Notes: generated by a model not told the origin, from the sequence alone. DNA of 57,911 nt from Vicinamibacteria bacterium (GCA_041485905.1 JBGPKK010000006.1:1-57911); one strand, 5' to 3'; shown: positions 14,709-47,733, counted from the first letter of the stretch. Translations and numbers: made by a program.

Positions 14709-14783
14709 GGCGGTATCGTCTAGGGGTCAGGACACGTGGTTCTCAGCCACGGGACCGGGGTTCGATTCCCCGTACCGCTACCA
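14709..14783 (+). tRNA. tRNA-Glu (anticodon CTC)
   Basis: Acceptor GGCGGTA/TACCGCT, anticodon arm CGTGG-TTCTCAG-CCACG, T arm CGGGG-TTCGATT-CCCCG, encoded CCA. Confidence 0.97.
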
Positions 14784-28134: not shown

Positions 28135-28215
28135 AGGTCGGGTGGGTCGGGTAGGGCAGGTGGGCCGCGTTTAAACCCACCAGACCTACCTGACCCCACC
28201 AGACCTACCTGACCC
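28135..28215. repeat. Inverted array of degenerate 9-mers
   Basis: GGTGGGTCG-like units, then GACCTACCT-like units. Confidence 0.65.
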
Positions 28216-28217
28216 AA

Positions 28218-29303
28218 GTGATCCGCCCCGTCAAGACGATCGACGCGCACGCGGCCGGCGAGCCTCTCCGCCTGATCGTCGACGGGTGTCCAGCCCCGCA
28301 GGGGCGCACGATGCTCGAGAAGCGCGAGTGGATGAGGAGGAAACAGGATCACCTCCGCCGCGCGTTGATGCTCGAACCGCGTGGCCACGCCGATATGTCC
28401 GGCGCGCTTCTCACCGAACCGGTCTCGCCCGGCTCCCACGTCGGCGTGCTGTTCATGCACAACGACGGCTACAGCACCATGTGCGGCCACGCCGTCATCG
28501 CAGTGGCCACGATCGCGCTCGAGCGCGGTCTACTCGTGCCCGGCGGCGACGGGCGAACGATCGTCTTCGACTCGCCGGCGGGTACCGTTCGCGCCACAGC
28601 GAGTCTAGCGCCTGCGGCCACGCCTCGCGCGCGTGAGCGCACAGCTCGCGAGGCGTCGGCGAGCGGGGGTGGGGCCCCGCGAGAAGGTCATGAATGCCGT
28701 GACACCAAAGTCGAGCGCGTCGCGTTCGAGAACGTCCCCTCCTTTGTGCTCCATCCCGGACTCGTCGTGAAGCTCGGGAGCCGGCAGATTCGCGCTGACA
28801 TCGCATTCGGCGGAGCCTTTTACGCCATCGTCGACAGCGAGGCCGTCGGTCTGCCCATCGATGCGGCGCACGTTCCAGAGCTCCGCCGCGTTGGGATGGA
28901 CATCATGCGCGCGATCGAAACCGCGCACCAGATCACGCACCCGCTCGAGCCGGAGCTGGGTGGGATTGACGGCACGATCTTTACGGGGCCGCCCGACGAT
29001 TCGCGGGCCGATTTGAGAAACGTGACGATCTTCGCCGGCGGCCAGGTCGACCGCTCACCCTGCGGCACCGGCACGGCGGCGGTGATGGCGGTGATCGACG
29101 CCATGGGATTGCTCGGCGACGACAGATCCTTCGTGCACGAGAGCGTCGTCGGCACGCTGTTCAACGGCAGGGTGACTGGACGGACCCAGGTGGGCGAGTA
29201 TCACGCGATCGTGGCGGAGATAGACGGATCGGCGTGGATCACCGGGGAGCACACGTTTCTGATTGACGAAGACGATCCGCTCAGGGAGGGATTTCACCTA
29301 TAG
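28218..29303 (+). CDS. Proline racemase / hydroxyproline epimerase family protein with in-frame repeat insertion
   Basis: DAHAAGEPLR, LEPRGH, TMCGH, DRSPCGTG (Cys/Cys catalytic pair). Confidence 0.92.
   Translation: MIRPVKTIDAHAAGEPLRLIVDGCPAPQGRTMLEKREWMRRKQDHLRRALMLEPRGHADMSGALLTEPVSPGSHVGVLFMHNDGYSTMCGHAVIAVATIALERGLLVPGGDGRTIVFDSPAGTVRATASLAPAATPRARERTAREASASGGGAPREGHECRDTKVERVAFENVPSFVLHPGLVVKLGSRQIRADIAFGGAFYAIVDSEAVGLPIDAAHVPELRRVGMDIMRAIETAHQITHPLEPELGGIDGTIFTGPPDDSRADLRNVTIFAGGQVDRSPCGTGTAAVMAVIDAMGLLGDDRSFVHESVVGTLFNGRVTGRTQVGEYHAIVAEIDGSAWITGEHTFLIDEDDPLREGFHL
28608..28696. repeat. ctaA-type palindromic element inserted in frame in the proline racemase gene
   Basis: 28659-28683 GCGAGCGGGGGTGGGGCCCCGCGAG is the exact reverse complement of 11489-11513. 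Confidence 0.8.
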
Positions 29304-29365
29304 GGCAAAGAGCATAGCGCATAGGGCATAGCCCCTTTACCCTCAGCCCTTTGCCCTCAGCCCTT
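29302..29365. repeat. Inverted heptamer array between convergent genes (possible terminator)
   Basis: AGGGCAW-like x4, then GCCCTYW-like x4-5. Confidence 0.65.
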
Positions 29366-31120
29366 CTAGTATCCGATCGCGAGTCCGTCCTTCCGCGGAT
29401 CCGAGCCGCCCATGAGCACGCCGGTGCGCGGATCGATCAGGATGCCCTGAAATCCGCCGAACGCGCCGATGCTTTCCGAGACGTGGTGACCGCGCCGGGT
29501 GAGACCCGTCCTGGCCGACTGTGTCACCGCACTCTCGACCAACAGGCCGTCGCTTCCGTGATGGACGCGCGCCGCCTCGCCGGCCTCCTGAATGTTCATC
29601 CCGAAGTCGATGAGATTCATCAGCACCTGGGTGTGTCCCTGCGCCTGGTGGTCGCCGCCCATGACCCCGAACGACACCCACGGTTGGCCGCCCTTCATGA
29701 CGAACGACGGCACGAGCGTGTGCATCGGCCGCTTGTGCGGCGCGATGCGATCGGGATGTCCCGGCGTGAGCGTGAACAGCGCACCGCGGTTGTGCAGCGC
29801 GATTCCGGTGTCGCCGGCGACGATGCCCGATCCGAATTCGGAGAAGAGCGACTGGATCAATGAGACGACATTGCCGCTGCCGTCGGCGACCGTCATGTAG
29901 ATGGTGTCGCCATGATCGCGGCCCGTCAGATTCTCGCCACGCTCATCCCGGTCCGTGCCTGATGCCACGCGCGAGATGACCGCGGGACCGTATCGCTCGG
30001 CTGCGTGCGCGGGGTTGATCTCTTTACGGCGGACGGCCGCGTACTCCTTGGAGATCAGCGTCTTGAGCACGGCCGGCGGAACATCAGCCGGGTCCGCCAG
30101 GTACGCCGCGCGATCCGCGAACGCGATCCGCTTGGCTTCCACGAGCAGGTGCAGGTATTCCGCCGAGTTGTGGCCGAGCGACGCGAGGTCGAACCCTTCG
30201 AGAATGTTCAGCATCTCGAGCGTCACGAAACCCTGAGTGTTCGGCGGCAACTCAAAGACGTCGTAGCCGCGGTAGGTGGTCGAGATCGGCTGCACCCAGT
30301 CGGACGTGTGTGCGCTGAAGTCGCGGGCCTCGAGCAGGCCGTCGCGCGCCTTCATGTCGGCGACGATCGCGGCGGCAATGGGCCCTTTGTAAAAGGCGTC
30401 CCGTCCGCCGGACGCGATTTGCTGCAGCGTCGCGGCGAGGTTCGGATTCGCGAAGATCTCGCCCGGCCGCGGGGCGCGCCCGCGCGGCAGGAACGTCCGC
30501 GCGGCGGCCGGATCGGCGGCGAGCTTGCCCGCGGCAGCGACCCACTGCCCGCTGATGATTTCCGACACCGCGTAACCGTTCCTGGCGTAGTCGATCGCCG
30601 GGGCGAGCAGGCGGGACAGCGGCATCGTGCCGTACGCGGACAGCAGCGCGTCCCAGCCATCGACGACCCCGGGGACGGTCACGGAGTACACGCCGCTCGT
30701 GGGAATGGTGGCCAGCCCGCGCGCGGCGAATGCTTCCGGCGTCGCGGCGTAGGCCGATCGACCGCTCGCGTTCAGTCCGCGCAGCGCCTTCGCCTTCGCG
30801 TCGTAGACGATCGCAAACAGATCGCCGCCGATGCCGGTCATCGTCGGCTCGACGACCGCGAGCACCGAGGCCGCGGCGATGGCCGCGTCGATCGCGTTGC
30901 CGCCATCCTGCAGCACCTTGAGGCCCGCGGCCGACGCCAGCGGCTGGCTTGTCGCAATCATGCCGTGACGTGCCATCACGACCGATCGCGTCGAATGAGG
31001 ATTGGCCGCCGGGCGATCGCCGGGGTGCGGGAGAGGAGAGCCCGCTCGTTGAGCCGATGACGCGTCCATGATAGCAATGCCCAGCAATGCTGCCGGAAGA
31101 CCGAGCGCGAGAGATTTCAT
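29366..31120 (-). CDS. ggt: Gamma-glutamyltransferase
   Basis: GGNAIDAA, GIGGD, ELPPNTQG, GDTIYM (Thr nucleophile), KRPMHT, GVMGG, SDPRKDG; start at ATG 31120. Confidence 0.95.
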   Translation of the reverse strand: MKSLALGLPAALLGIAIMDASSAQRAGSPLPHPGDRPAANPHSTRSVVMARHGMIATSQPLASAAGLKVLQDGGNAIDAAIAAASVLAVVEPTMTGIGGDLFAIVYDAKAKALRGLNASGRSAYAATPEAFAARGLATIPTSGVYSVTVPGVVDGWDALLSAYGTMPLSRLLAPAIDYARNGYAVSEIISGQWVAAAGKLAADPAAARTFLPRGRAPRPGEIFANPNLAATLQQIASGGRDAFYKGPIAAAIVADMKARDGLLEARDFSAHTSDWVQPISTTYRGYDVFELPPNTQGFVTLEMLNILEGFDLASLGHNSAEYLHLLVEAKRIAFADRAAYLADPADVPPAVLKTLISKEYAAVRRKEINPAHAAERYGPAVISRVASGTDRDERGENLTGRDHGDTIYMTVADGSGNVVSLIQSLFSEFGSGIVAGDTGIALHNRGALFTLTPGHPDRIAPHKRPMHTLVPSFVMKGGQPWVSFGVMGGDHQAQGHTQVLMNLIDFGMNIQEAGEAARVHHGSDGLLVESAVTQSARTGLTRRGHHVSESIGAFGGFQGILIDPRTGVLMGGSDPRKDGLAIGY

Positions 31121-31133
31121 GACGTGCCGCCTC

Positions 31134-31454
31134 TCAGAGTTGAAGATGCACGCGCGCCAGCCGCTCGAGCAGCTGCGGCAGCGTCTCGGTGCCGAGCGCA
31201 AAGGCGCCGAGCTCCGGCGCCCACGAGAGTTTATAACTCTTCGCCATGGCCGAGACCCAGATTTGCCGGACGGGAGCGTTGGGCGAGACGACGAACCGCG
31301 CCTCGGACGGCTCCTCGAAGAGGAGGTTCAGGACGCCGTCCTGCATCTCGATTTCGAAGCCTTCGTTGTCGGCGGGCGCCATGAGCGCGCGGCGTGCCTG
31401 CTCGATCGCTGCATCGCTCTTGACGCGGAATTCCTGTTCGGTGAGAGCAGCCAT
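31134..31454 (-). CDS. cyaY: Frataxin-like iron donor CyaY
   Basis: LTEQEF, DGVLNL, FVVSPNAPVRQIWVSA. Confidence 0.88.
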   Translation of the reverse strand: MAALTEQEFRVKSDAAIEQARRALMAPADNEGFEIEMQDGVLNLLFEEPSEARFVVSPNAPVRQIWVSAMAKSYKLSWAPELGAFALGTETLPQLLERLARVHLQL

Positions 31455-33632: not shown

Positions 33633-34727
33633 TTGCCGAACCAGACGCCGTCGAATCGGCGCACGTACATCGACTGGGCGCGCGGCATCGCCGTCCTGCT
33701 GATGATCGAGGCGCACACGTTCGACGCGTGGACACGGCCTGCCGTGCGCGCGTCGGCGGCGTTCCGCAAAGCGAACATTCTCGGCGGTCTGGCCGCGCCG
33801 CTCTTTCTCTGGCTGGCCGGCGTCGGCGTCGCGATGTCGGCGGCGGCCGTCACGCGCCGCTCCGGTCGCCGCGCAGACGGGGTCTACGCGGTCTGCCGCC
33901 GCGGCCTCGAGATTTTTGTCCTGGCCTTCCTTTTCCGGCTGCAGGGTCTGATCGTCAGCCCCGGCGGTCACATCGTGACCCTCTTTCGCGTGGACATCCT
34001 GAATATCATGGGGCCGTCCATGGTCGCCGCCGGCCTCATCTGGTGGATCAGCGACAGGCCCGCGGTGCAGGTCGGCGTTTACGCAGCCATCGCCTGCGCC
34101 TTGGCGATGCTGACGCCGATCGTCCGCGTGTCCCCGCTGGTCGGCACATTACCGATGGTGGTTCAGTGGTACTTGCGGCCGTACGCGGACCTGACGTTGT
34201 TCACGGTGTTTCCGTGGGCGGGATTTGTGTTCGCCGGCGCCGCATGCGGCGTGCTGCTCTCCGCCGCGCGTGACCCGAACCGAGAGCGGCGCCTGCACGT
34301 GTCGCTTGCGCTCGCCGGCGTCGCGATCCTCGTGCTGGGAGACTACACGGCTTCGTTGCCGTCCATTTATCAGCAGTCGTCATTCTGGACGAGCTCGCCC
34401 ACCTACTTCGCGATCCGCGTCGGTGTTCTGCTGCTGATTCTGTCCGCGATGTTCGCGCTGGCGCGCGGGCTGGAGCCGCGCGGCGTTCTGCTGGGTCCTC
34501 TCGCACGATTCGGCCGCGAGTCGCTGTTCGTCTATTGGATCCACGTCGAGCTGGTGTACGGCTACGCGACCTGGCCGATTCGCCACCGCCTGCCGATCGC
34601 GGGCACCTTCGTGGCGTACGTGCTGTTCACCGCGCTGATGTACGGGGCCGTTGTCGCAAAAGGACGGTTCGTGGAGACGTGGCGGGCCCGCCACCAGGCG
34701 CCGCGCCCTCGAACCGTGACGGCCTGA
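33633..34727 (+). CDS. Membrane acyltransferase (DUF1624 / HGSNAT-like)
   Basis: IDWARGIAVLLMIEAH, AAPLFL, DILNIMG, FPWAGF, GRESLFVYWIH. Confidence 0.8.
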   Translation: MPNQTPSNRRTYIDWARGIAVLLMIEAHTFDAWTRPAVRASAAFRKANILGGLAAPLFLWLAGVGVAMSAAAVTRRSGRRADGVYAVCRRGLEIFVLAFLFRLQGLIVSPGGHIVTLFRVDILNIMGPSMVAAGLIWWISDRPAVQVGVYAAIACALAMLTPIVRVSPLVGTLPMVVQWYLRPYADLTLFTVFPWAGFVFAGAACGVLLSAARDPNRERRLHVSLALAGVAILVLGDYTASLPSIYQQSSFWTSSPTYFAIRVGVLLLILSAMFALARGLEPRGVLLGPLARFGRESLFVYWIHVELVYGYATWPIRHRLPIAGTFVAYVLFTALMYGAVVAKGRFVETWRARHQAPRPRTVTA

Positions 34728-34834
34728 GTGCTACAGGCCTCACGTCAGTTGCCAGAACTCCTTGGTTACGAGATACTATTCCCGTTTTTGAAGCTTCCAC
34801 GCGGGCCTTCCAGAAGCGTTCGGGACCAGAACCT

Positions 34835-35977
34835 ATGATCAACGTCGCCGCGATTCGGATGCAGCAGTTCGGGGTGCAGTTCTACCAGGCCTCGCTGACG
34901 GCCAGTGATATCGACAAGCTCGTGCGGTTCGAAGTCCTCAGCTACGGCGACAGCGCGCAACCCCCGGTGCGAGGGGGTAAGCAGCGGTTCGGCGCGCCGG
35001 CCTCGAAAGTGAATTGGGATCTGCTCGAGCGGCGCATCGCATCGAACGAAAAGGCGTACCAGCGTCAAATCATCCGCCGCAAGATCGACGAGCTGGTGCA
35101 GTACTACGAGCAATGCCGTCAGGCGCGCGACCTGCCGTCGATTCCCGGCGCGGTGATTATCTCGTGCGACGAAAAGCTGAGCTTCCAGGCGGCGGGCGAG
35201 GATTCGCGCGTCGGCATCCTGAAAGTCCCCGAGCGCGAAGGCATCCTGCGCGCGATCGACGGCCAGCACCGGCTGCTGGCGCTGCATGCGGACATCGATC
35301 GCTTTCAAGGCGAGGATTTCAGCGTCCCGGCGATCATTTTCGACCGCCTGCCGGAAGATCACGTCGTGCAGATGTTTGTGACGATCAACGCGAAGCACAC
35401 GCGGCTGAATGCGTCGCACCTGGTCAGCCTGTCGGGCCGGCAGCTCTATAAAGACGAGAACCTCGCAACGGCGCACGACGTCGTGCGGGCGCTCAACGAC
35501 CGCGAAGACTCGCCGCTCTACGACGAAATCAAGCTGCTTGGCGTCGGCCGGGGGCGCGTCGCCCAGGCGCCGCTGGCGCAGGAGCTGAAGAAGCTGTTCT
35601 CCACCGACGCCTTCGGCGGCGTGCGCAAGACGAGCGATTTTCACGAGGACGCGAAAAAGTTCTTCGTCAACTACTTCAAGCAGATCGCGCTGGTGTTCGG
35701 CGGCGCGTGGAACGGCCGCAAGTACAGCATCAAGTCGGCGTCGGCGCTGCGTGCGTTTGTGCGGGTCGCTCCAGACGTCATCCGCCGGCTCGATCAGGAG
35801 CACGCGGATCGCGCGGACTTCCGGGCCATCGGCCGTGCGATCGCGCCGTGGGGCCGGCGCATCGGCGATCTCCGCTTCGAGACCGAAGGCGCATGGAAGC
35901 GAGCGGGGACGACCGTCGATTCGCTGGTGAAAGAGCTTCGGCTCGCGCTCCAGTATCCCGAAGGCGCTGCCGTCTGA
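34835..35977 (+). CDS. DGQHR domain protein (DndB-related)
   Basis: YQR, IPGAVII, AIDGQHRLLAL, FVTINAK; start ATG 34835 after a TTGCCA-N17-GATACT promoter-like site. Confidence 0.9.
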   Translation: MINVAAIRMQQFGVQFYQASLTASDIDKLVRFEVLSYGDSAQPPVRGGKQRFGAPASKVNWDLLERRIASNEKAYQRQIIRRKIDELVQYYEQCRQARDLPSIPGAVIISCDEKLSFQAAGEDSRVGILKVPEREGILRAIDGQHRLLALHADIDRFQGEDFSVPAIIFDRLPEDHVVQMFVTINAKHTRLNASHLVSLSGRQLYKDENLATAHDVVRALNDREDSPLYDEIKLLGVGRGRVAQAPLAQELKKLFSTDAFGGVRKTSDFHEDAKKFFVNYFKQIALVFGGAWNGRKYSIKSASALRAFVRVAPDVIRRLDQEHADRADFRAIGRAIAPWGRRIGDLRFETEGAWKRAGTTVDSLVKELRLALQYPEGAAV

Positions 35978-37129: not shown

Positions 37130-38001
37130 TAAAGGGCATCATCCTTGCCGGCGGATCGGGGTCGCGGTTGCACCCGCTGACGCGCGCCGTGAGCAAGCAG
37201 CTCATGCCCATCTACAACAAGCCGATGGTGTACTACCCGATCTCGACGTTGATGCTGTCGGGGATCCGGCAGATCCTCGTCATCACCACGCCGCACGAGC
37301 AGGAGGGTTTCAGACGGCTGCTAGGCGACGGATCGGAAATCGGCCTGCAGATCGAGTATGCCGCGCAGCCGAGCCCCGACGGCCTCGCGCAGGCGTTCAT
37401 CATCGGCCGGACGTTCATCGGGAGCGACCGCGTGACGCTGGCGCTGGGCGACAATATTTTTTATGGCGCGCATTTCTCCGATTACCTGCGCAGCGCCGCG
37501 GCGCGCGAGACGGGCGCGACGGTGTTCGGGTATCAGGTCCGCGACCCGGAACGCTACGGCGTCGTCGAGCTCGATGCCTCGGGCCGCCCCGTCAGTCTCG
37601 AAGAGAAACCGGCCAAGCCCAGATCGTCGTACGCCGTGACCGGCTTGTACTTCTACGACAACAAGGTCGTCGACATCGCGGCGCGGCTGCGCCCGTCGCC
37701 ACGCGGCGAGCTCGAAATCACCGACATCAACCGGCAGTACCTCGAGCGGTCCGAGCTTCACGTCGAAAAGCTCGCGCGCGGCATCGCGTGGCTCGACACT
37801 GGTACCCATGAATCCCTCATGCAGGCATCCAACTACATTCATGCCATCGAAGAGCGCCAGGGTCTGATGGTGGCCTGCCTGGAGGAGATTGCGTACCGCA
37901 TGGGGTATATCACCGCCGCCGATCTGGGACGGCTGGCGCGGACGATGGAGTCGAGCGGCTACGGCCGGTACCTCCTCCGCGTGCTCGAACAGGAGTCTTA
38001 A
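37126..38001 (+). CDS. rfbA: Glucose-1-phosphate thymidylyltransferase
   Basis: [41 protein letters not shown]. Confidence 0.97.
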
Positions 38002-38163
38002 CAGCCCGTGGTGCAGCCCCATCTGCATTCGAACGGCGAGGCATCCCGGCTGGCTGCGTTGCTTCTCCCTCAAATATTCCCGATATTCTCGGTCGTCGCG
38101 CCTTGCCAGCCGGGCGCCTCGCCGTTCTCGGTGCGACGATGGCGTCGCACCACGGGCTGTTAA
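37998..38163. mobile_element. MITE-like element (166 bp)
   Basis: Perfect 17-bp terminal inverted repeat TTAACAGCCCGTGGTGC / GCACCACGGGCTGTTAA; internal arms GAACGGCGAGGC / GCCTCGCCGTTC and CCCGGCTGGC / GCCAGCCGGG. Confidence 0.75.
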
Positions 38164-38164
38164 C

Positions 38165-38722
38165 GTGCGGTTTGTACCGACCGAGCTGCCCGACGTCATC
38201 GTCGTCGAGCCGGACGTTCACCGCGACGGACGCGGCTTCTTCCTGGAAACCTATCACGCCGAGAAGTATCGCGGCGGCGGCATCCACGGCCCGTTCATCC
38301 AGGACAACCATTCGCAGTCGGTGGCCGGGACGCTTCGAGGGCTTCACCTGCAGATGCCGCGCCCGCAAGGGAAGCTGATTCGCGTCATCCAGGGCGAGAT
38401 CTTCGACGTGGCGGTGGACGTCAGGCGGGGATCCCCCACGTTCGGCCGCTGGGTGGGCGTCACGATTTCCGCGGACAACTTCAAGCAGTGCTACGTGCCG
38501 CCTGGCTTCGCCCACGGGTTCTCGGTCGTGAGCCCGATGGCGCAGGTCGAGTACAAGTGCACGGCCCTGTACGATCCGGCGAGCGAGATCGGCGTCGCAT
38601 GGAACGATCCGGCGCTGGCGATCGCCTGGCCCGTTGCCGAACCGCTGCTGTCGGATCGCGATCGGCGTCATCCGACGTTGGCCCAGATTCTCGACGTCCT
38701 GCCCGAATGGAGCCGATCGTGA
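38165..38722 (+). CDS. rfbC: dTDP-4-dehydrorhamnose 3,5-epimerase
   Basis: [34 protein letters not shown]; GTG start at 38165. Confidence 0.95.
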
Positions 38723-38763
38723 AGTAGTGTGGATCTTCACTCCTACCCGCAGCTCGTGACAGA

Positions 38764-38858
38764 TGTGTAAGATCAGCGACAAACTCGTTGTCGGCTGAAC
38801 ACGGGCCTCCGCACAAATCCTTGATTTCCTTTGAAAAACATGCCGGTACGCCGCTTGC
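38764..38858 (+). promoter_or_regulatory. Sigma-54 promoter with IHF site and candidate enhancer
   Basis: CGGTACGCCGCTTGC (GG 38845-46, GC 38857-58); IHF match AATCAAGGATTTG on the minus strand at 38814-38826; TGT-N10-ACA at 38766-38781. Confidence 0.65.
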
Positions 38859-38869
38859 CCTTCGGGTAA

Positions 38870-38970
38870 GCACAGTCGCTGGTCTGATTACGGCAGGGCG
38901 CCGTGAATGCTGGGGGAGCCAGACCAGTGAGGCGAAGGGGCATCGCAATGACGCGATGCCCTTTTGTTTT
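38870..38970 (+). ncRNA. Candidate small RNA or structured leader of about 100 nt
   Basis: 11-bp stem 38876-86/38920-30 enclosing a second hairpin, followed by an intrinsic terminator. Confidence 0.5.
38935..38970 (+). terminator. Intrinsic terminator
   Basis: AAGGGGCATCGC-AATGAC-GCGATGCCCTTT followed by TGTTTT. Confidence 0.85.
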
Positions 38971-39002
38971 GTACGGGCTAAGATGCCACGCTCAGCGCAG
39001 AT

Positions 39003-39764
39003 ATGAGAGTGGATCTGAACGCCGACCTCGGCGAGTCGTTTGGCGCCTACGTGATCGGCAACGACGCCGCGCTGATGCGCTCGATCACGTCGGCATCGGT
39101 CGCGGCCGGATTTCACGGCGGCGATCCTTCAGTCCTGCGGCGCACGATCCGCCTCGCGAAATCGCACGGCGTGGCGATCGGCGCGCATCCGGGCTTTCCA
39201 GATCTCGTTGGCTTCGGCCGGCGGGAGCTTCAGGTTGACGCGTCGGAAGCCGAGGACTTCGTGCTGTATCAGATTGCCGCCGTGGCGGGCGTTGCGGCTG
39301 CCGAAGGTGTGAAGCTGCAGCACGTCAAGCCGCACGGGGCGTTGTTCAACATGGCCGTGCGGAATGTGGGACTTGCCACGGCGATCGCGAGAGCGGTGGC
39401 GGCATTTGACGCCTCGCTGATTCTCTTTGGTTTACCCGGATCCGAGATTCTCAACGCCGGCCGCACCGCGGGCCTTCGCGTTGCCGCCGAGGTTTTTGCC
39501 GATCGCGCGTACGAGGCGGACGGATCGTTGACGCCACGTAGTAGACCGGGCTCGGTGATTCACGACCCGGCGGCCGTCCTCTCCCGCGTCCTTGGAATGA
39601 TTCAGAATCGCGCGGTCGCCGCGGTCGACGGCAAGGTTGTGCCGCTCGAGGCCGACACGATCTGCATCCATGGCGACACGCCGGGAGCGGAAGACCTCGC
39701 CGCCAGACTGCGCGCCGGCCTCGAGGCGGCAGGCGTGGCGGTGAAGGCCATTGGATTGCCGTAA
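39003..39764 (+). CDS. pxpA: 5-oxoprolinase subunit A (LamB/YcsF)
   Basis: DLNADLGESFG, GFHGGDP, GAHP, HVKPHGALFN, EVFADRAY, CIHGD. Confidence 0.93.
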   Translation: MRVDLNADLGESFGAYVIGNDAALMRSITSASVAAGFHGGDPSVLRRTIRLAKSHGVAIGAHPGFPDLVGFGRRELQVDASEAEDFVLYQIAAVAGVAAAEGVKLQHVKPHGALFNMAVRNVGLATAIARAVAAFDASLILFGLPGSEILNAGRTAGLRVAAEVFADRAYEADGSLTPRSRPGSVIHDPAAVLSRVLGMIQNRAVAAVDGKVVPLEADTICIHGDTPGAEDLAARLRAGLEAAGVAVKAIGLP

Positions 39765-39880
39765 CGACGCACTGGCGAAACACTGCGGCCGTCGATCTGT
39801 TCTTCGGTTGTTGCAACGGACAGCCGTGACAGCCGCCGCGTCGCGGATGGTCGATCCGATACAGCTGAGAGCTCGAATGA

Positions 39881-41602
39881 CTACCCACCGTTGTTCCTGA
39901 GCGCCCTTCGGAGGATTTTTCCCACCATCGTTTTCGGCAGGTCGTTGCGAAATTCGATTCGTGACGGCACCTTGTACGGCGCGACGCGCTCGCGGCAGAA
40001 CGCCCGCAGCTCGGCTTCCGTCGCTTTCTGGCCCGCGCGCAACACGACCCAGGCCTTCACGGCTTCGCCTTTGACCGGATCCGTCACGCCGGCGACGCCG
40101 ACCTCGGCGATCGCGGGATGCGACGCCAGGACTTCCTCGATCTCTCGCGGCCACACCTGATACCCGCTCGTTTTAATCAGGTCTTTCTTGCGATCGACGA
40201 TGAACAGGTAGCCGTCTTCGTCGAGGTAGCCGAGATCGCCGGTGTGCAGCCATACGCGGCTGAGGGAAGGCGTCTCGGCGTGGTCGCGCAGCACGATCGC
40301 CGTTTCTTCAGGACGGTTCCAGAATCCCGACATCAGTTGTGGCGCGGAAAGCGCGATCTCGCCGACCTCGCTTGCAGGCAGCGGTCGATTGCCTTCCTCG
40401 GCATCGAAGATGCGGACGTGCACGTCGGGAAGCGGCATGCCCACCGACCCCAGTTTGTTCGGCCCATCGACGGGGTTCACGCAGAGTGCCATCATCGCCT
40501 CGGTCAGCGAGTAGCCCTCGACAATCCGGCCGCCGGTCAGCGATTCGAATCGCCGCTTCGTGTCTGCCAGCAGGGCGGCTGCGCCCGAGAAGCAGATCTT
40601 GATCGATTTGAAGTCGACCTTGCCGCTTTGCACATCCGGGTGGTTGAGCAGCGCGACGTACATCGTGGGCACGCCGTTGAAGAACGCCGGCTTCACGCGG
40701 CGAATGGTGGCCAGCAGATCGGCCAGGTCACGGGGATTGGGGACGAGCGCGACCGGATTGCCGTTCACCAACGCCAGAGCTTGGATGCCCACGTTGGCGT
40801 AAACATGGAACAACGGCAGCGGCGCCAGGATGACGTCTCGCTCACCGCCGAGGACTGACTCGGTCCAGGCCTTCACCTGCAGGCCGGTGAAGACGTACGC
40901 GCGGTGCGCGCCCAGCGCGCCTTTCGGAGTACCGGTGGTGCCGCCGCTCATCAACAGGACCGCGGGATCGGCCGCTGTGAGTGTGGCGCGGGTCGGCCGG
41001 CGCCCGTCGTTGATCCGCAGCAGGCGTGCGAAGTCGTGATCGCCAGGGGCGAGGTCGATGCGATCGCCCTCGCGTGTCTCCCGGGCGATCGTAAACATCA
41101 ACCGCAGAACGGCCGGAAAGTGATCCTTGATGTTCGTAGCGATGATATGGCGCAGGGGTGTGCGGCCCTGCAGCGGCTTCACGCGCGCGTAAAACCGGGT
41201 CAGTGTGACGATCGTCTCGATCCCGTGCTCACCGAGCGGCCCTTCCAGCTCACGCTCCGTGTAGGTCGGGTTCAGGGGCGCGACGATTGCCCCCAGCTTC
41301 CAGGCGCCGAACTGAGCGATCAGGAATTGTGGACAGTTGGGAAGGAGCAGCGCGATCCGATCGCCGCGCCGGATCCCCAGGGTTTCGAATGCGCACGCGC
41401 ACGCGTCGCTCAGGCGTTCGAGCGCGCCCCACGTGATCGTGGACCCTTTGAAAAGGATCGCCGGGCGATCGGATCGATCTCGCGCGGCGTCAGCCAGGTA
41501 ATCGACCAGCGTCCGGGTCGGATACGGCGCCAGCGTCCGCGGCACGCCAGGGTCGTAATGATCAAGCCATGGGGCGGTTGGGGTTGTCGAGTTCAACGAC
41601 AC
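39881..41602 (-). CDS. Long-chain fatty acid-CoA ligase
   Basis: SGGTTGTPKG, PLFHVY, EGYSLTE, WLHTGDLG, DRKKDLI, PKTMVGKILRR. Confidence 0.92.
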   Translation of the reverse strand: MSLNSTTPTAPWLDHYDPGVPRTLAPYPTRTLVDYLADAARDRSDRPAILFKGSTITWGALERLSDACACAFETLGIRRGDRIALLLPNCPQFLIAQFGAWKLGAIVAPLNPTYTERELEGPLGEHGIETIVTLTRFYARVKPLQGRTPLRHIIATNIKDHFPAVLRLMFTIARETREGDRIDLAPGDHDFARLLRINDGRRPTRATLTAADPAVLLMSGGTTGTPKGALGAHRAYVFTGLQVKAWTESVLGGERDVILAPLPLFHVYANVGIQALALVNGNPVALVPNPRDLADLLATIRRVKPAFFNGVPTMYVALLNHPDVQSGKVDFKSIKICFSGAAALLADTKRRFESLTGGRIVEGYSLTEAMMALCVNPVDGPNKLGSVGMPLPDVHVRIFDAEEGNRPLPASEVGEIALSAPQLMSGFWNRPEETAIVLRDHAETPSLSRVWLHTGDLGYLDEDGYLFIVDRKKDLIKTSGYQVWPREIEEVLASHPAIAEVGVAGVTDPVKGEAVKAWVVLRAGQKATEAELRAFCRERVAPYKVPSRIEFRNDLPKTMVGKILRRALRNNGG

Positions 41603-41672
41603 AACGTAAAACGAAAACCGTCAAACGTAAAGAGATTGCTCGCCGGCCGCTTTACGTTCTGCGTCTTACGTT
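41602..41672. repeat. Inverted heptamer array (AAACGTA / TTACGTT)
   Basis: aacgtaaaacgaaaaccgtcaaacgtaaa ... tttacgttctgcgtcttacgtt. Confidence 0.55.
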
Positions 41673-42631
41673 GCTGATTGCGGAGCCAGGAGCATCAGGA
41701 GCAGCGCCTTCTGGCAGTGCAGCCGGTTCTCGGCCTGGTCGAACACGATCGACGCCGGCGATTCGAAGACGTCGCTCGTGACTTCCTCGCCCCGATGCGC
41801 CGGCAGGCAATGCATGAAGAACGCGCCGGGCTTGGCGAGCGACATCAGATCCTCGTTGACCTGGTACGCCGCGAACGCCCGGCGGCGGACCTCGGCTTCC
41901 GCCTCTTTTCCCATCGACGTCCAGGTATCGGTGTAGACCGCATCGACGCCGGCCACGGCGTCGGCCGCCTCGTTGAACAGCCGAAGCCGTGCGCCATGCG
42001 ACGCGGCGTGGGTCGATTGCTGGACCACCGTGTCTGGCAGCTGGTAGCCGTCAGGACTGGCGACGTGCAGGTTGACGCCCAGCAGCGCGGACGCGTGCGC
42101 CAGCGACGTGGCCACGTTGTTCCCGTCGCCGACATACGCAATCGTCCGGCCGCGCAGCGCGCCCCAGTGCTCGCCCAGCGTCAGGAAATCGGCAACGACC
42201 TGGCACGGGTGCTCGTTGTCGGTGAGCGCGTTGATGACATGCATGCGGCACGCGCAGGCCGCAAACTGCTCGAGCACCTGGTGCGAGAACGTCCGGATCA
42301 CCACGGCGTCGATCCATCGCTCGAGGGTGCGCGCGACGTCGACGATTGCCTCGCGCTGTCCGAGCGCGGCGTCCGGCTGCAGACCGATGACCGTGCCGCC
42401 AAGCTCTCGGACCGCGATCTCGAACGTCGTGCGCGTCCGCAGCGACGATTTTTCGAACAGCATCGCCACGTATCGGCCGCCGAGCGCCGCGGCCGTCGGC
42501 GCCTGCGGACCCAGCACCCGGTCAGCCTTGATCCGCGCAGCCAGCTCCAGACACCGCTCGAGATCGGCGGCGTCCAGGTCGAGGACCGAGAGGAAATCCT
42601 TTCGAGGAGTGACCGAGGCTGAGTTGGGCAT
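41666..42631 (-). CDS. argF: Ornithine carbamoyltransferase
   Basis: KSSLRTR, HPCQ, GDGNNV, DTWTSMG, HCLP, QAENR. Confidence 0.95.
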   Translation of the reverse strand: MPNSASVTPRKDFLSVLDLDAADLERCLELAARIKADRVLGPQAPTAAALGGRYVAMLFEKSSLRTRTTFEIAVRELGGTVIGLQPDAALGQREAIVDVARTLERWIDAVVIRTFSHQVLEQFAACACRMHVINALTDNEHPCQVVADFLTLGEHWGALRGRTIAYVGDGNNVATSLAHASALLGVNLHVASPDGYQLPDTVVQQSTHAASHGARLRLFNEAADAVAGVDAVYTDTWTSMGKEAEAEVRRRAFAAYQVNEDLMSLAKPGAFFMHCLPAHRGEEVTSDVFESPASIVFDQAENRLHCQKALLLMLLAPQSAT

Positions 42632-42640
42632 AACAGATCC

Positions 42641-42725
42641 TGGAATCTGGTCATCTGGTCATTTGGTCATTTGGTCATTCAATCGATCGATCAATCAATG
42701 ACCAGATGACCAGATGACCAAATTC
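42641..42725. repeat. Inverted octamer array
   Basis: (TGGTCATY)x4, a short AATCGATCGATCAATCA spacer, then (ATGACCAR)x3. Confidence 0.8.
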
Positions 42726-42736
42726 ATGATTGTCCG

Positions 42737-44002
42737 TCAGGTTCGGTAATCCGCGTTGATGCGTACGTATTCCGCGCTCAGGTCGCACGTCCAGACAGTC
42801 GACGTCGCATTCCCGACGCCGAGGTCCAGCGACAGGTCGATCTCTTTCCGTTTCAGATACTCGGCCGCTCGAGGCGCAGCCTCGTCGTGCGGTCGCCCGT
42901 CCTCGAACAGCACGGCAGGACCGATCCGGACCGACGCGCGCGACAGATCGAACGCCACGCCCGCACGACCGGCAACCGCGATCAGGCGGCCCCAATTGGG
43001 ATCGCCGCCGTGGATGGCGGTTTTCACGAGCAGCGAGTTGGCGATCGCCTTCGCCGTCCGCCGCGCCTGGTCGGCCGACCGGGCGCCGGTGACCGTCACT
43101 GTCACCAGTTTCGTGGCCCCCTCGCCGCCGCGCACGATCCCGAGCGCCAGCTCGCGGCAGACGGTCCGCAGGCCGTCGACGAATACACCGTAGCTCGCCT
43201 CGTCCACGACTCCGCCGCCGGCGCCGTTGGCGAGCAGCATCACACAATCGTTGGTTGAGCATTCGCCGTCGACGGTGATGGCGTTGAACGTGTCGTTCAC
43301 CGCCTCGCCGAGCGCGCGGTCGAGCAGCGCTCTCGGCACCGACGCATCGGTTGCCACAAACGCGAGCATCGTCGCCATCATCGGCTCGATCATGCCCGCG
43401 CCTTTGGCCATGCCCCCAATGCCGATCGTCCGGCCGCCGATCGTGATCTGGACCGCCGCTTCTTTGGGAAACGGATCGGTCGTCATAATCGCGCGGGCCG
43501 CCGCGCCACCCTGATCCGCGCTGAGCGCGGCACTCGCCGCCGCCAGTCCTGCTGTGATCTTCGCGATCGGCAGCGAGACACCGATCACGCCGGTCGAAGC
43601 GACGAGCACCTGCTCGGTCGGGCAGCCGACCAGACGCGCGGTCTGCTCCGCCATCTCTCGGGCCACCTGCAGCCCCTCGTCGCCCGTACAGGCGTTGGCG
43701 CAGCCGCTGTTGACGATGATGGCGCGCGCGATGCCGCCCGAACGCGCGAGGTGCTCGCGGGAAACGAGAATCGGCGCTGCCTGGGCGAGGTTCGTGGTGA
43801 ACACGGCTGCCGCCGTCGCCGGGACGTCTGAGACGAGCAAGGCAAGGTCGAGCGGCGCAGGCGTGGAGGGGACGTTCGAGGCCGGTGGCTCACTGCTTCG
43901 CTTGATCCCGGCGCTGACCCCGGCGGCCCGGAAGCCTTGCGGCGTGGTGACGCCGCCGCCTGCCCCGAGCGGCGTCGAGGGGCTGATGGTGCCGATCGTC
44001 AT
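42737..44002 (-). CDS. argJ: Ornithine acetyltransferase ArgJ
   Basis: VFTTN, NSGCANACTG, STGVIG, IMTTD, KGAGMIEPMMATML, STND, EGATK, DPNWGR; start at ATG 44002. Confidence 0.96.
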   Translation of the reverse strand: MTIGTISPSTPLGAGGGVTTPQGFRAAGVSAGIKRSSEPPASNVPSTPAPLDLALLVSDVPATAAAVFTTNLAQAAPILVSREHLARSGGIARAIIVNSGCANACTGDEGLQVAREMAEQTARLVGCPTEQVLVASTGVIGVSLPIAKITAGLAAASAALSADQGGAAARAIMTTDPFPKEAAVQITIGGRTIGIGGMAKGAGMIEPMMATMLAFVATDASVPRALLDRALGEAVNDTFNAITVDGECSTNDCVMLLANGAGGGVVDEASYGVFVDGLRTVCRELALGIVRGGEGATKLVTVTVTGARSADQARRTAKAIANSLLVKTAIHGGDPNWGRLIAVAGRAGVAFDLSRASVRIGPAVLFEDGRPHDEAAPRAAEYLKRKEIDLSLDLGVGNATSTVWTCDLSAEYVRINADYRT

Positions 44003-44523
44003 GCGTAGCGCGCGGCGGAGTCGGCCGCAGCCACGGCTGGCCTGACCCGGGCGTCGAGCGGCATCACCATCGCGTACTGCCCGCAGCGGCGGAATTGCGG
44101 GCACTTCATGCAGTCGGTGAACACCTTCTCGATCAGCCACAGGTGCGGCACGATCGAGAAGCCCATGCCGATGAAATATCCCGGGGCGTGCGTGAAGGCG
44201 CAGAGTTTTTCGTACCCGTCGTGCCGCGCGCGCCGCCGCAGCTCGTCGACGATGGCGGTCCCCACGCCGCTGCCGCGCTCGGCTCCGTCGACGGCGAGCG
44301 ATCGCACCTCTGCGACATGAGCGCTGAGTGGCGCCAGCTCCGCGCAGCCGACGATATTTCGTCCGCGCACGGCGAGCACGAATCGATCGGCGTGCGCTTC
44401 GATCTCGGTCAGCGTCCGCGGCAGCAGACGCCCCTCTTCGAGGTTCGCCAGAATCAAGGCATGGACGCGTTTCGCGTTCGACGCCTCCGCCGGTCGAATC
44501 GTGACTGCAGCGCGACGCCTCAT
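43999..44523 (-). CDS. argA: Short GNAT N-acetylglutamate synthase
   Basis: LLPR, AEVRSLAV, GSGVG, KVFTDCMKC; position within the arg operon. Confidence 0.8.
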   Translation of the reverse strand: MRRRAAVTIRPAEASNAKRVHALILANLEEGRLLPRTLTEIEAHADRFVLAVRGRNIVGCAELAPLSAHVAEVRSLAVDGAERGSGVGTAIVDELRRRARHDGYEKLCAFTHAPGYFIGMGFSIVPHLWLIEKVFTDCMKCPQFRRCGQYAMVMPLDARVRPAVAAADSAARYA

Positions 44524-45734
44524 GCGGGGCCTCCGTCGGCCTCGACCAGGCCGAGCGCGGCATCGAGCCGTGCCAGTCCCTCGTCGAGCTCGTCTACGGT
44601 GATGATGAGCGGCGGCAGCAGTCGAACGACGGTTCCCGCCGTGCGATTGACGACGACGCCTTGCGACAGCGCCGCGGGCACGACGGCCGCGGCGTCACGG
44701 TTCAGCTCGATCCCCCAGATAAGCCCGCCGCCCCTGACGTCCTTGACGATCGGGTGCGCGGCAGCGATCCCTTTGAGCCGTTGTTCGACGTGGCGGCCGA
44801 CGCGCCCGATGTGCGCGAGCAGGCCGCCTCCCACCAGTTCGTCCAGCACGCACAGCGCGGCGCGGCAGGCGAGAAGGTTTCCACCGTAGGTGCTCCCGTG
44901 GTCGCCGAAGGAAATCGTGTGCGCGACCTCTTCGCTGATGAGCGCGGCGCCGATCGGCACGCCGCCGCCCAGCGCCTTCCCGAGCGACATCAGATGCGGC
45001 TTCAGACCGATGGCCGCCGAGTAAAACGGATAGCCGGTTCGTCCGAGTCCGCTCTGCACTTCATCCGCGATGAGCAGCGCGCCGGTGCGATGGCACGCGT
45101 CCATGATGGCCGCGCCGAATGCCGGGGTCAGCGGCCGGATGCCGCCTTCGCCCTGGATCGGCTCGACGATGATCGCCCCAGTTGCATTCGAGACCGCCAC
45201 CTTGAGGGCCGCTGGATCGTTCGCCGGAACAAATCGAACGCCGGCGAGGAGCGGCTCGAACGGCGCGCGGTAGTGCTCGTCAGACGTGACGGACAGCGAT
45301 CCGAACGTGCGCCCGTGAAACGACCCGTCGAGCGCGATGATCTCGGGCCGCGATTCGCCGCGGGTGTACCAAAAGCGCCGCGCGAACTTCAGGCACGCTT
45401 CAACGGCCTCGGTGCCGCTGTTGCAGAAGAATGCGCGCGGCAGGCCGGAGAGGTTCGCCAGGCGCTCGGCGAGCTGACCCTGCAGCGGGTGATAAAAGAG
45501 GTTCGACGTGTGCATCAAGGTCTGCGCCTGATCCGCAATCGCGCGCGCCAGACCCGGATGCGCATGGCCCAGGGCGGCGACGCCGATCCCGGACAGCAGA
45601 TCCAGATACTCGCGGCCTTCGGCGTCGTACAGCCGCACGCCCGCACCACGGACGAACGTCACGGGCGCGCGGCGATAGGTCTGCAGAACGTGTCGGGCTT
45701 CGAGCGCTTGAACGTCGGCTATTACTGTCGTCAT
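44520..45734 (-). CDS. argD: Acetylornithine aminotransferase
   Basis: NSGTEAVE, FHGRT, EPIQGEGG, DEVQSGLGRTG, GKALGGG, TYGGN. Confidence 0.95.
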   Translation of the reverse strand: MTTVIADVQALEARHVLQTYRRAPVTFVRGAGVRLYDAEGREYLDLLSGIGVAALGHAHPGLARAIADQAQTLMHTSNLFYHPLQGQLAERLANLSGLPRAFFCNSGTEAVEACLKFARRFWYTRGESRPEIIALDGSFHGRTFGSLSVTSDEHYRAPFEPLLAGVRFVPANDPAALKVAVSNATGAIIVEPIQGEGGIRPLTPAFGAAIMDACHRTGALLIADEVQSGLGRTGYPFYSAAIGLKPHLMSLGKALGGGVPIGAALISEEVAHTISFGDHGSTYGGNLLACRAALCVLDELVGGGLLAHIGRVGRHVEQRLKGIAAAHPIVKDVRGGGLIWGIELNRDAAAVVPAALSQGVVVNRTAGTVVRLLPPLIITVDELDEGLARLDAALGLVEADGGPA

Positions 45735-46561
45735 ATTCGGATGCTCTCGCTTCTGTCTGTCACGAGCCGCGTGGCTTGGGATGGCACGCGTGGGCCCGCC
45801 GCCGCGGCAAGCGCGTCCGGGTCGCGCCCATCGACAATCACCACGTCGTCCACGTCGTTGGCCAGGGCCTCCTGGCAGGCGCGCAGCTTGGCCATCATCC
45901 CGGCCGTCGCGGTGCCGTTCGCCAGAAGCTCGGCGATCGCCCTGTCATGGAGCGACGGGATCGTCACGCCGTCCGCCCCGAGGACTCCCGGTGTCGTCCC
46001 CGCGATCACCAGCCGCCTGGCCCGGAGCCGCGCCGCCAGATGACCCGCGAACGTGTCCGCGTTGACGTTCAGGAGCCGGCCGTCCCGTCCCACGCCGATG
46101 GAGGCGATGACGGGGACGAAGCCCCCTTGCAGCAACGTGTGCACGATCCGCGTATCGGCGCCAGCCGCCGGTATGCCAACCCGGCCGAGATCGACGAGGC
46201 GGCCGTCGAGCGTGCGATGAAGCGGCGCCACTTCCGACAAGCCGCACGCGCCATCCGCTCCGGTCAGGCCCACCGCCGCCACGCCCGCGGCCGTCAGGGC
46301 GGCGACCAGTCGCGTGTTCACCAAGCCCGCGAGCACCGACACGACGACGGTCAAAGTCGGGTCGTCGGTGATGCGCAGCCCCTCGACCTGCCGGTTTTCG
46401 ATACCGGCGGCTTTCAGCGCGGCGTCGATCTCGCGGCCGCCCCCGTGGACGACAACGAGCGGTGTCGAGACCGCGATCTCCCGGATGGCGGTCACGATAG
46501 GGTGCAGGCGCTCCGGATTCTCGAGCAGCTCGCCGCCAAACTTCAGAACGAGCGGTCTCAC
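45731..46561 (-). CDS. argB: Acetylglutamate kinase
   Basis: LKFGG, VHGGG, GLRITD, NVNAD, GMMAKL; GTG start near 46561. Confidence 0.93.
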   Translation of the reverse strand: MRPLVLKFGGELLENPERLHPIVTAIREIAVSTPLVVVHGGGREIDAALKAAGIENRQVEGLRITDDPTLTVVVSVLAGLVNTRLVAALTAAGVAAVGLTGADGACGLSEVAPLHRTLDGRLVDLGRVGIPAAGADTRIVHTLLQGGFVPVIASIGVGRDGRLLNVNADTFAGHLAARLRARRLVIAGTTPGVLGADGVTIPSLHDRAIAELLANGTATAGMMAKLRACQEALANDVDDVVIVDGRDPDALAAAAGPRVPSQATRLVTDRSESIRI

Positions 46562-46575
46562 GACCGCACCCGACA

Positions 46576-46632
46576 AAGTCTCAAGTCTGCAGTCTGAAGT
46601 CTGCCGGGCTTCAGCCTTGAGACTTCGTACTT
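46576..46632. repeat. Inverted heptamer array (AGTCTGA / AGACTT)
   Basis: aagtctc aagtctg cagtctg aagtctg ... cagccttgagacttcgtactt. Confidence 0.6.
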
Positions 46633-46658
46633 CCGCACGGCTCTGCGCGCCGCAGGCG

Positions 46659-47711
46659 CTACCACAGCGCGGTTCGCTCGTCGACACCCAGCATCACGTT
46701 CAGGTTCTGGACCGCCTGGCCCGACGCCCCCTTGAGCAGGTTGTCGATCACCGACACGAGCACCGCGCGGCCTGACGGGTCGACGCGCCAGCCGATGTCG
46801 CAGAAGTTGGTGTGCGCGACGTGCTTGATTTCGGGCAGCGACGATCCGACCAGCCTGACGAAGGGCGCGGCGGCGTACGCCTGCTGATAGATCTCGGCAA
46901 GTTTGTCTTCAGTCGTGCCGGGCGCCAGGCGCACGTACATCGTCGAGAGAATCCCGCGATCGAGCGGCACCAGGTGCGGCACAAACGTCACGGTCGACGG
47001 TCTGTGGGCCGCCGACGCGATCCCCTGCTCGATTTCCGCCGCGTGGCGATGGCTGAACACGCCGTACGCCACGACGCTACCGTGGCACTCGGAGAAGTGC
47101 GTCCGCTCGGACGCCGTCTTGCCCGCGCCCGACACGCCGGACTTGGCGTCGACGATGATGTCGCCGGCAGCCGCGAGCAGGCCGGCGCCGGCCAGCGGCG
47201 CGAGCGGGAGGAGCGCGGCGGTGGGATAGCAGCCCGGGTTCGCCACGAGCCGCGCCTGACCGACCGCGTCGCGCTCCAGCTCCGTGAGCCCGTACGCGAT
47301 CCCCGCCGGCATTCGGTGGGTTTCGGGATACCAGTGCGCGCGCTGGCCCTCGTCCGTCAGCCGGAAGGCGCCGGACAGATCGATGACGCGCACGCCCGCG
47401 TCCACCAGCGCGGGCGCGAGCTCGGCGGCCGCGGCGTCGGGCAGCGCCAGGAAGACCACATCGGCTTCGCGCAGCGTTGCAGGCGAGAGCGGCGTGATGT
47501 CGCCGTTCCACAGCCGCGCGAGCCCGGGCAGCTTTCTCGACGCGGTCGCCCCCGACGACATCGCGGCCGTGAGGCTGACCCACGGGTGGCGCGACAGCAG
47601 GCGCAGCAGCTCCTGGCCGGTGTAGCCGGTCGCACCGGCGACGGCAACGCGGGCGGGCGCCGTGGCGCCGGGCGCCGGCGTCGATGATCCTGGTTGCACA
47701 AGTGTATGCAT
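46659..47711 (-). CDS. argC: N-acetyl-gamma-glutamyl-phosphate reductase
   Basis: GATGYTG, DLSGAFR, NPGCYPT, SGVSGAG, DNLLKGASGQAVQN. Confidence 0.96.
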   Translation of the reverse strand: MHTLVQPGSSTPAPGATAPARVAVAGATGYTGQELLRLLSRHPWVSLTAAMSSGATASRKLPGLARLWNGDITPLSPATLREADVVFLALPDAAAAELAPALVDAGVRVIDLSGAFRLTDEGQRAHWYPETHRMPAGIAYGLTELERDAVGQARLVANPGCYPTAALLPLAPLAGAGLLAAAGDIIVDAKSGVSGAGKTASERTHFSECHGSVVAYGVFSHRHAAEIEQGIASAAHRPSTVTFVPHLVPLDRGILSTMYVRLAPGTTEDKLAEIYQQAYAAAPFVRLVGSSLPEIKHVAHTNFCDIGWRVDPSGRAVLVSVIDNLLKGASGQAVQNLNVMLGVDERTALW

Positions 47712-47733
47712 CGAAAGGTATATTTATACACAC
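47695..47733. promoter_or_regulatory. Putative ARG box(es)
   Basis: Minus strand TGTATAAATATAC plus adjacent TGCATAC in the AT-rich argC/argR divergent region. Confidence 0.55.

Follow-up and report, generated by a model that had tools for sequence, protein, structure and literature searches.

A probable sigma-54-driven small RNA gene between rfbC and pxpA, conserved across the Vicinamibacterales

The 280-nucleotide (nt) gap between the rfbC stop (38722) and the pxpA ATG (39003) on a contig of a Vicinamibacteria bacterium (GCA_041485905.1 JBGPKK010000006.1:1-57911) is the subject of this report. The whole stretch of 57,911 nt is called the window, and positions are counted from its first nucleotide. 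An earlier reading of this DNA, made from the sequence alone and called here the sequence-only reading, had proposed that the gap holds a small RNA gene driven by sigma-54 and integration host factor (IHF) and laid out like Qrr, GlmY and CrcZ, with an attenuated leader of pxpA as the alternative. Comparison with related genomes supports that layout through a conserved promoter, a phased enhancer and a covarying structure, and we consider it probable that 38759-38970 is an independent gene for a structured regulatory RNA of ~100 nt, driven by sigma-54 and activated from an enhancer. The source genome is 5.08 Mb with 64.7% G+C and is rated 100% complete, and the RNA locus is single-copy in it. 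The name PxpA for the downstream product rests on NCBIfam NF003814, which scores 355.5 bits (cut-off 226). The features of the locus, in order, are as follows.

38170 to 38722 (start approximate), plus strand: rfbC, dTDP-4-dehydrorhamnose 3,5-epimerase (PF00908, 2e-66), the upstream neighbor
38759 to 38768, plus strand: site 1 of the putative enhancer (upstream activating sequence), ACAGATGTGT (ACR-N4-YGT), first half of a bipartite motif
38779 to 38788, plus strand: site 2 of the putative enhancer, ACAAACTCGT (ACR-N4-YGT), 20 base pairs (bp), or two helical turns, from site 1
38815 to 38838, no strand assigned: three A/T tracts in 10-bp phase (AAA 38815-17, TTT 38825-27, AAAAA 38834-38)
38845 to 38858, plus strand: near-consensus sigma-54 promoter, GGTACG-N4-TTGC (-24 GG at 38845-46, -12 GC at 38857-58)
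about 38870 to 38970, plus strand: predicted small RNA of ~100 nt, ending with the T-tract of the terminator
38876 to 38886 with 38920 to 38930, plus strand: closing stem P1, 11 bp, enclosing both hairpins
38888 to 38906, plus strand: hairpin 1 of the predicted fold, stem ACGGC/GCCGU, loop AGGGC
38909 to 38919, plus strand: hairpin 2 of the predicted fold, GCU-GGGGG-AGC, within UGCUGGGG(G)AGCC
38931 to 38970, plus strand: predicted intrinsic terminator (hairpin 38931-38968), with a G+C-rich stem, a 6-nt loop and the tail TTTTGTTTT
39003 to 39764, plus strand: pxpA, 5-oxoprolinase subunit A of the LamB/YcsF family (PF03746, 1.4e-97), the usual downstream neighbor

The RNA joins no established family. 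In the whole window, a tRNA at 14709-14780 is the only feature that reaches an Rfam 15 gathering threshold, in keeping with the sequence-only reading, which had recognized no family. Over 38650-39050 the sole match at E ≤ 10 is STnc380 (RF02055), which has a similar length and aligns over the terminal hairpin; with 14.5 bits against a gathering threshold of 60 and E = 2.4, we reject it as chance. Its relatives are instead found by direct search. A nucleotide search of 41 related genomes gives matches in 22, with 20 of 24 further genomes of the same family represented and 1 of 16 from other families. These matches are 76-94% identical, extend across genera, and nearly all span the predicted RNA from start to terminator. 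When 20 loci are aligned, the RNA aligns with a mean column identity of 84% and the flanking DNA does not align. Of 151 genomes sampled from the order, a first covariance model, built from these sequences, detects the RNA in 82, which represent 13 of 19 families, and a broader model from 45 sequences of several families raises this to 88 genomes and 14 families; two families of the order give 0 of 12 genomes each with the broader model. Outside the order, ~140 genomes of the phylum yield one weak match (G257), which we reject as a homolog since it is terminator-like only and the conserved core is absent.

A degenerate pattern for the core was also used to scan 185,579 species genomes, giving at least 120 stretches, 80 of which were examined. 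A full-length model match is present in 63 of the 80, and 60 of these 63 are labeled Vicinamibacterales, Vicinamibacteria, Acidobacteriota or Acidobacteria gp6; by the labels of named records, Vicinamibacterales corresponds to Acidobacteriota subdivision 6. The other 17 examined stretches give no model match; they belong to various other phyla and fit the pattern by chance. Three bins titled 'uncultured Bifidobacterium' or 'Bifidobacteriaceae' (L086, L124, L125) carry the RNA at 85-98 bits together with a sigma-54 promoter, and probably either their labels are wrong or the contigs were mis-binned. The RNA is conserved across the Vicinamibacterales and, among the genomes searched, is confined to this one order of soil Acidobacteriota.

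The predicted RNA has a folding energy of -56.6 kcal/mol on the plus strand (z = -6.05; none of 200 shuffles is as stable), versus -43.3 kcal/mol for the minus strand. The minimum-energy structure is the same as the centroid and holds 29% of the ensemble, and no alternative (antiterminator) fold of the RNA is predicted. The 11-bp stem and the GGGGG stretch described by the sequence-only reading are both there, and the stem encloses two hairpins, not the single one described. RNAalifold on 20 loci returns the same structure with compensatory changes in 8 of 34 pairs. Further pair counts were taken from the 45-sequence alignment, which covers several families but was fitted to the model and is made of related genomes that are not independent, so that the figures are generous. 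In that alignment 98.6% of cells are paired and 22 of the 34 pairs have changed on both sides, values reached by 0 of 500 shuffles. When the partners are shifted by 1-3 columns, 4-11 compensatory pairs are counted versus the 22 observed.

By domain, P1 has changes on both sides in 9 of its 11 pairs with 97.3% of cells paired (44 distinct sequences), and the terminator has compensatory changes in 11 of 13 stem pairs (helices 4 and 5), so that P1 and the terminator clearly covary. Hairpin 1 has compensatory changes in 2 of 7 pairs, takes the form of a GUGGC/GCCAC stem in one family, and has a loop that varies among families. The three stem pairs of hairpin 2 are the same in each of the 44 distinct sequences, and the surrounding block UGCUGGGG(G)AGCC is kept in every true homolog examined, tandem copies and paralogs included, with single-base changes in a few. 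That block is the probable recognition element or site of action. The RNA has lengths of 98-117 nt with 1- and 2-nt gaps among aligned homologs, which excludes a conserved reading frame and bears out the earlier description of about 100 nt without a convincing open reading frame.

The strong terminator that had been noted 32 nt before pxpA is likewise where it was placed, its hairpin spanning 38931-38968 and its T-tract ending at 38970. In the last 14 nt of the model match, 88 of 101 loci have 7-10 T. A simple terminator consensus scan of 38000-40000 did not list it, probably because the predicted stem extends into the T-run. At the other end, the RNA would start near 38870, to judge from the promoter geometry (~12 nt after the -12 C) and from the position where conservation sets in.

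Sigma-54 promoters have a GG and a GC exactly 10 nt apart within the consensus TGGCACG-N4-TTGCW. Here the GG and GC lie within cGGTACGccgcTTGCc (38844-38859), and the GG-N10-GC that the sequence-only reading had picked out at 38845-38858 is conserved well above chance expectation. Using 102 pooled non-identical loci, GG-N10-GC is found 3-14 nt 5' of the RNA model start in 101, most commonly at 8-11 nt. Anchored on the GG, the columns of these 101 loci read G(101) G(101) Y A(98) Y R N4 T(100) T(101) G(101) C(101), which as a sequence pattern is the sigma-54 consensus. A matrix made from the homologous promoters passes 23 sites in the 5.08-Mb genome, among which the RNA promoter ranks highest, and a consensus scan of 38000-40000 finds no sigma-70-like promoter. 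The genome also has the sigma factor itself: Sigma54_DBD pieces of rpoN are found at two contig ends with 125 and 114 bits (contigs C32:6-269 and C267:5198-5461), and as far as can be told the split is an assembly break rather than a gene defect. Opening of every sigma-54 promoter requires an ATP-dependent enhancer-binding protein, and there are 26 Sigma54_activat matches in the genome, 24 of them with E < 1e-25, or ~24 enhancer-binding proteins.

Upstream of the promoter, at 38759-38788, is a bipartite motif, ACR-N4-YGT-N10-ACR-N4-YGT, occurring here as ACAGATGTGT...ACAAACTCGT. The TGT-N10-ACA at 38766-38781 that had been seen from the sequence is present as the inner part of this larger conserved element. 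At least 10 of the 12 motif positions are matched in 76 of 101 loci, versus 3.25 expected from shuffles. The motif starts cluster near -75, -85, -96 and -106 relative to the -24 GG, and since these are steps of ~10.5 bp, the enhancer stays on one face of the helix. The 34-nt enhancer element scores 36.1 bits here versus 24.5 for the next best place in the 5.08-Mb genome, and no other sigma-54-like site in the genome carries the bipartite element, which suggests an activator with very few targets. The element is a candidate binding site for an enhancer-binding protein.

Two other features proposed for this region fare less well. The inverted repeat CGACAA/TTGTCG is present with 6 bp at 38777-38793, but its conservation is at chance level, arms of at least 5 being found in 7 of 76 loci versus 5.0 expected from shuffles; we reject it as an RNA hairpin or operator and regard the upstream element as a DNA motif. 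Similarly, an exact IHF consensus, WATCAA-N4-TTR, does occur on the minus strand at 38814-38826, but a WATCAR-N4-TTR site between enhancer and promoter is found in only 1 of 101 loci, namely this one (shuffle mean 0.17), so the IHF label is unsupported. The match falls within the phased A/T tracts, and it is these that are conserved. Across the 101 loci, counted from the GG, the A/T fraction peaks at -8/-9 (0.75-0.81), -18/-19 (0.92-0.95) and -28/-29 (0.75-0.76), versus 0.19-0.30 between the peaks. The phased tracts probably bend the DNA intrinsically or bind an architectural protein.

A point of interest is which of the enhancer-binding proteins might act here, and 3 candidates were compared for presence in 89 RNA-positive versus 62 RNA-negative genomes of the order. 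In one genus, a paralog of the RNA and an operon encoding an NtrC-type response regulator are arranged divergently and 0.2-1.4 kb apart in 8 of 12 sampled genomes. The orthologue of that regulator (taken from G110) in the genome studied here is 64% identical, lies on contig C158, and is followed by a gene for a Cache/HAMP sensor kinase. It is not convincing as the activator, being present in 81 of the 89 RNA-positive but also in 35 of the 62 RNA-negative genomes, and the paralogs beside its orthologue are without the main enhancer motif. A GAF-type activator on C193 (60/89 versus 18/62) and a response-regulator type on C68 (66/89 versus 15/62) are not convincing, and their association is partly built in because they were picked in a presence/absence screen for fitting four test genomes.

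Some side observations touch on this question. In genus g28, the second paralogs (L208, L210, L211, L214, L216) have direct repeats GGAAAAAA...GGAAAAATTTACA ~60-110 nt 5' in place of the main enhancer, and adjoin an operon with an OmpA-family gene and a response-regulator gene; the two paralogs in this genus are probably regulated differently. In the source genome, the divergent intergenic region 5' of the C158 response-regulator gene (L182, 2470-2616) holds ATGTCATTTTTACAT, a TGT...ACA palindrome with a TTTACA core that resembles the motifs 5' of the RNA paralogs and could be an autoregulatory site.

Several points weigh against reading the locus as an independent RNA gene, and the main ones concern pxpA. 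Of 20 same-family loci, 14 have that gene next on the same strand, and most other families show the same order. The gap between the RNA and pxpA, which is 11-108 nt in most loci (32 nt here, and 11-13 nt at three of the loci), often leaves no room for a separate promoter, so that pxpA probably depends on read-through, either from the RNA promoter or from upstream. The remaining points are that the alignment behind the pair counts was fitted to the model and drawn from genomes that are not independent, that none of the three activator candidates tracks the distribution of the RNA cleanly, and that no convincing target came from a genome-wide RNAduplex search on 8-nt seeds (860 merged sites) or from a search for exact complements of at least 10 nt. 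The closeness to pxpA is the core of the alternative that the sequence-only reading had named, in which the RNA is a cis-acting, riboswitch-like leader or attenuator of pxpA, the sigma-54 promoter serves pxpA, the short RNA is a terminated by-product, and a ligand or protein controls, by way of the RNA structure and its terminator, how much transcription reads through. The adjacency does survive across families while the upstream gene changes, being rfbA-rfbC on the same strand at 18 of 20 same-family loci, and a DndB-like gene (PF14072) or a divergent M14 peptidase gene in other families, with pxpA still next. The short gaps and the lack of a sigma-70-like promoter in the scan also fit a leader, and riboswitches are usually laid out in this way, as a compact three-way junction that contains invariant nucleotides and has a terminator after it.

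What weighs against a leader is the set of loci in which the RNA and pxpA are parted or the RNA is duplicated. Two genomes have tandem copies ~335 nt apart, and every copy has a GG-N10-GC promoter and a terminator of its own. In one genus an unlinked second paralog is flanked by a divergent OmpA-family gene and by a dehydrogenase gene that converges on it; no co-directional gene lies downstream. At some loci the other downstream genes are unrelated ones (TonB-receptor-like, S-layer-like, M20 peptidase, flavoprotein), or a convergent SCO1 gene. In G120, G163 and G021 pxpA lies 4.5, 7.5 and 17 kb downstream of the RNA, and in G150 it is divergent from the RNA and 119 nt away; each of these four genomes has one RNA copy, intact and with its own promoter retained, and no second copy before pxpA. 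The terminator 5' arm moreover does not overlap P1, and the fold analysis gave no antiterminator. The tandem copies, paralogs and uncoupled loci favor a trans-acting RNA over a pxpA leader, and common as the adjacency is, we find the leader quite improbable. It is far less credible still that there is no RNA gene here at all, and that the conserved block is a DNA-level signal (the terminator of an rfb/DndB operon plus regulatory sites) or a small-protein gene. A terminator is indeed expected after rfbC, and mechanically called reading frames overlap the region at 38788-39006 (plus strand, 72 amino acids) and 38773-38943 (minus strand, 56 amino acids). Against this, compensatory change in 22 of 34 pairs is a property of RNA, folding is better on the plus strand, the block retains its promoter even at loci with a divergent upstream gene, such as those with the M14 peptidase, and the 1-2-nt gaps and varying lengths destroy any frame.

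If the RNA acts in trans, there is still the question of what it acts upon. Hfq (PF17209) and CsrA (PF02599) each give 0 matches in the genome rated 100% complete, which removes the two commonest small RNA partners and with them the model of a CsrA sponge of the CsrB/RsmZ type. That model is rejected also on the RNA itself, which has one GGA-containing hairpin. The longest genomic complements of the RNA are 10-15 nt and mostly inside coding frames; they look like chance, and the RNAduplex energies look inflated, because of the 64.7% G+C of the genome. One way to account for the missing messenger RNA (mRNA) target is that the RNA binds and titrates a protein rather than pairing with mRNA, as a decoy like CsrB, 6S or GlmY. 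About 40 nt of core, stems included, are nearly invariant, which is more than a seed needs, and the two G-rich apical loops are held on a rigid junction. On the other side, the best-known partners are the very proteins that gave no match, there is one GGA-type motif per RNA, and no conserved adjoining gene is a candidate for the binding protein, apart from the DndB-like gene. We regard a protein decoy as unlikely, less so than a pxpA leader.

The preferred reading, an independent sigma-54-driven gene for a trans-acting RNA, would work as follows. An enhancer-binding protein on the bipartite element at 38759-38788, ~86 bp 5' of the -24, would open the promoter, with the three phased A/T tracts bending the DNA so as to join enhancer element and promoter. 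Sigma-54 RNA polymerase would transcribe from the -24/-12 promoter at 38845-38858, starting near 38870 as predicted, and would stop at the intrinsic terminator at 38931-38970. The product would be an RNA in which the 11-bp stem closes a three-way junction with two hairpins, acting most likely in trans as the output of one signaling pathway. Its G-rich loop may pair with C/U-rich stretches of mRNA; a protein would be the alternative partner. Either mode would do without Hfq or CsrA. A minor read-through fraction may feed pxpA, which is possibly a read-through product of the RNA promoter.

Comparison with the known sigma-54-dependent small RNAs helps to place the family. Qrr RNAs of Vibrio require Hfq, and qrr1 is next to and divergent from luxO. 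The present RNA shares with Qrr a short length, a sigma-54 promoter, an upstream activator site, an intrinsic terminator, a long conserved core and one to several copies per genome, and in one genus one copy adjoins, divergently, a response-regulator enhancer-binding gene, just as qrr1 does luxO. It differs in that no Hfq was found in this genome, in forming a closed three-way junction versus a row of stem-loops, in its enhancer motif and phylum, and in having no Rfam match to Qrr. Qrr is described as activated by LuxO and as having a conserved 32-nt core (PMC4211561). With GlmY/GlmZ of Enterobacteria, which depend on GlrK-GlrR, sigma-54 and IHF, the RNA shares a sigma-54 promoter, palindromic activator sites of the TGT...ACA type, and an architectural element between activator sites and promoter. 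The GlmY promoter region has a GlrR site and IHF sites, in contrast to the phased A/T tracts here, and there is no Rfam match to GlmY/GlmZ. GlmY is described as a protein decoy (PMC7073468). A similar decoy role is possible for the RNA studied here.

In Pseudomonas, CrcZ (CbrA-CbrB) and NrsZ (NtrB-NtrC) are sigma-54 small RNAs driven by a two-component enhancer-binding protein and concerned with carbon and nitrogen use. The likeness of the present RNA to these is in its neighbors, which are amino-acid and peptide genes (pxpA and peptidases, with gamma-glutamyltranspeptidase and arginine biosynthesis in the window). CrcZ is ~400 nt long and titrates Hfq/Crc via A-rich motifs, whereas the present RNA is ~100 nt and G-rich, Hfq was not found in its genome, and Rfam gives no match to CrcZ. 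By its sequence features, then, we class the RNA as a new family within a known kind, the sigma-54-dependent, enhancer-activated small RNAs.

The wider neighborhood gives some indication of the history of the locus. In most other families of the order the immediate neighbor of the RNA, upstream or convergent, is the DndB-like gene. In the window this gene (480 amino acids, PF14072, 2.3e-14) is at 34535-35977 on the plus strand, directly 5' of rfbB-rfbA-rfbC. Hence the rfb genes look inserted in the source family, and the ancestral order looks like DndB-like gene, RNA, pxpA. The surroundings at 28194-31327 and 41669-47723 are rich in genes of glutamate, proline and arginine metabolism, including a proline racemase and a gamma-glutamyltranspeptidase upstream of the RNA locus and, downstream of it on the minus strand, an argF-argJ-argD-argB-argC-like cluster. 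The minus strand also carries another Sigma54_activat gene at ~55018-56034. Just past the RNA, the tail TTTTGTTTTGTAC (38962-38985) is more strongly conserved, here and at the equivalent position of same-family loci, than termination would require, and a -10-like TAnnAT box recurs 8-9 nt after it in several loci, here TAAGAT at 38979-38984. The box could be a promoter element of the downstream gene overlapping the terminator; no -35 partner for it was seen after TTTTGTTTTGTAC.

Literature searches found no paper on regulatory RNAs of the Vicinamibacterales, an order mostly known from metagenome bins. What is offered here is a candidate new RNA family backed by more than 100 sequences and covariation, and a locus that comparison defines as a complete regulatory unit, with enhancer, probable bend, sigma-54 promoter, structured RNA and terminator. 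It extends the known theme of sigma-54-dependent small RNAs and overturns nothing. It also yields a consensus for the sigma-54 promoters of the order, presents a case of a small RNA from a lineage that gave no match to Hfq or CsrA, and provides a handle for finding the activator and its signal. We would go further only tentatively, to a proposal that we hold to be doubtful, namely that the RNA is the dedicated and possibly sole output of one enhancer-binding pathway in the Vicinamibacterales, a one-promoter regulon like LuxO-Qrr that is free of Hfq and CsrA and relies on an RNA with a rigid three-way junction, with its nearly invariant G-rich hairpin binding a protein or ligand or C-rich mRNA. 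If that were true, it would be the first sigma-54/small RNA circuit described in Acidobacteriota, and it would couple an environmental signal to the use of peptides, 5-oxoproline or glutamate in abundant uncultured soil bacteria.

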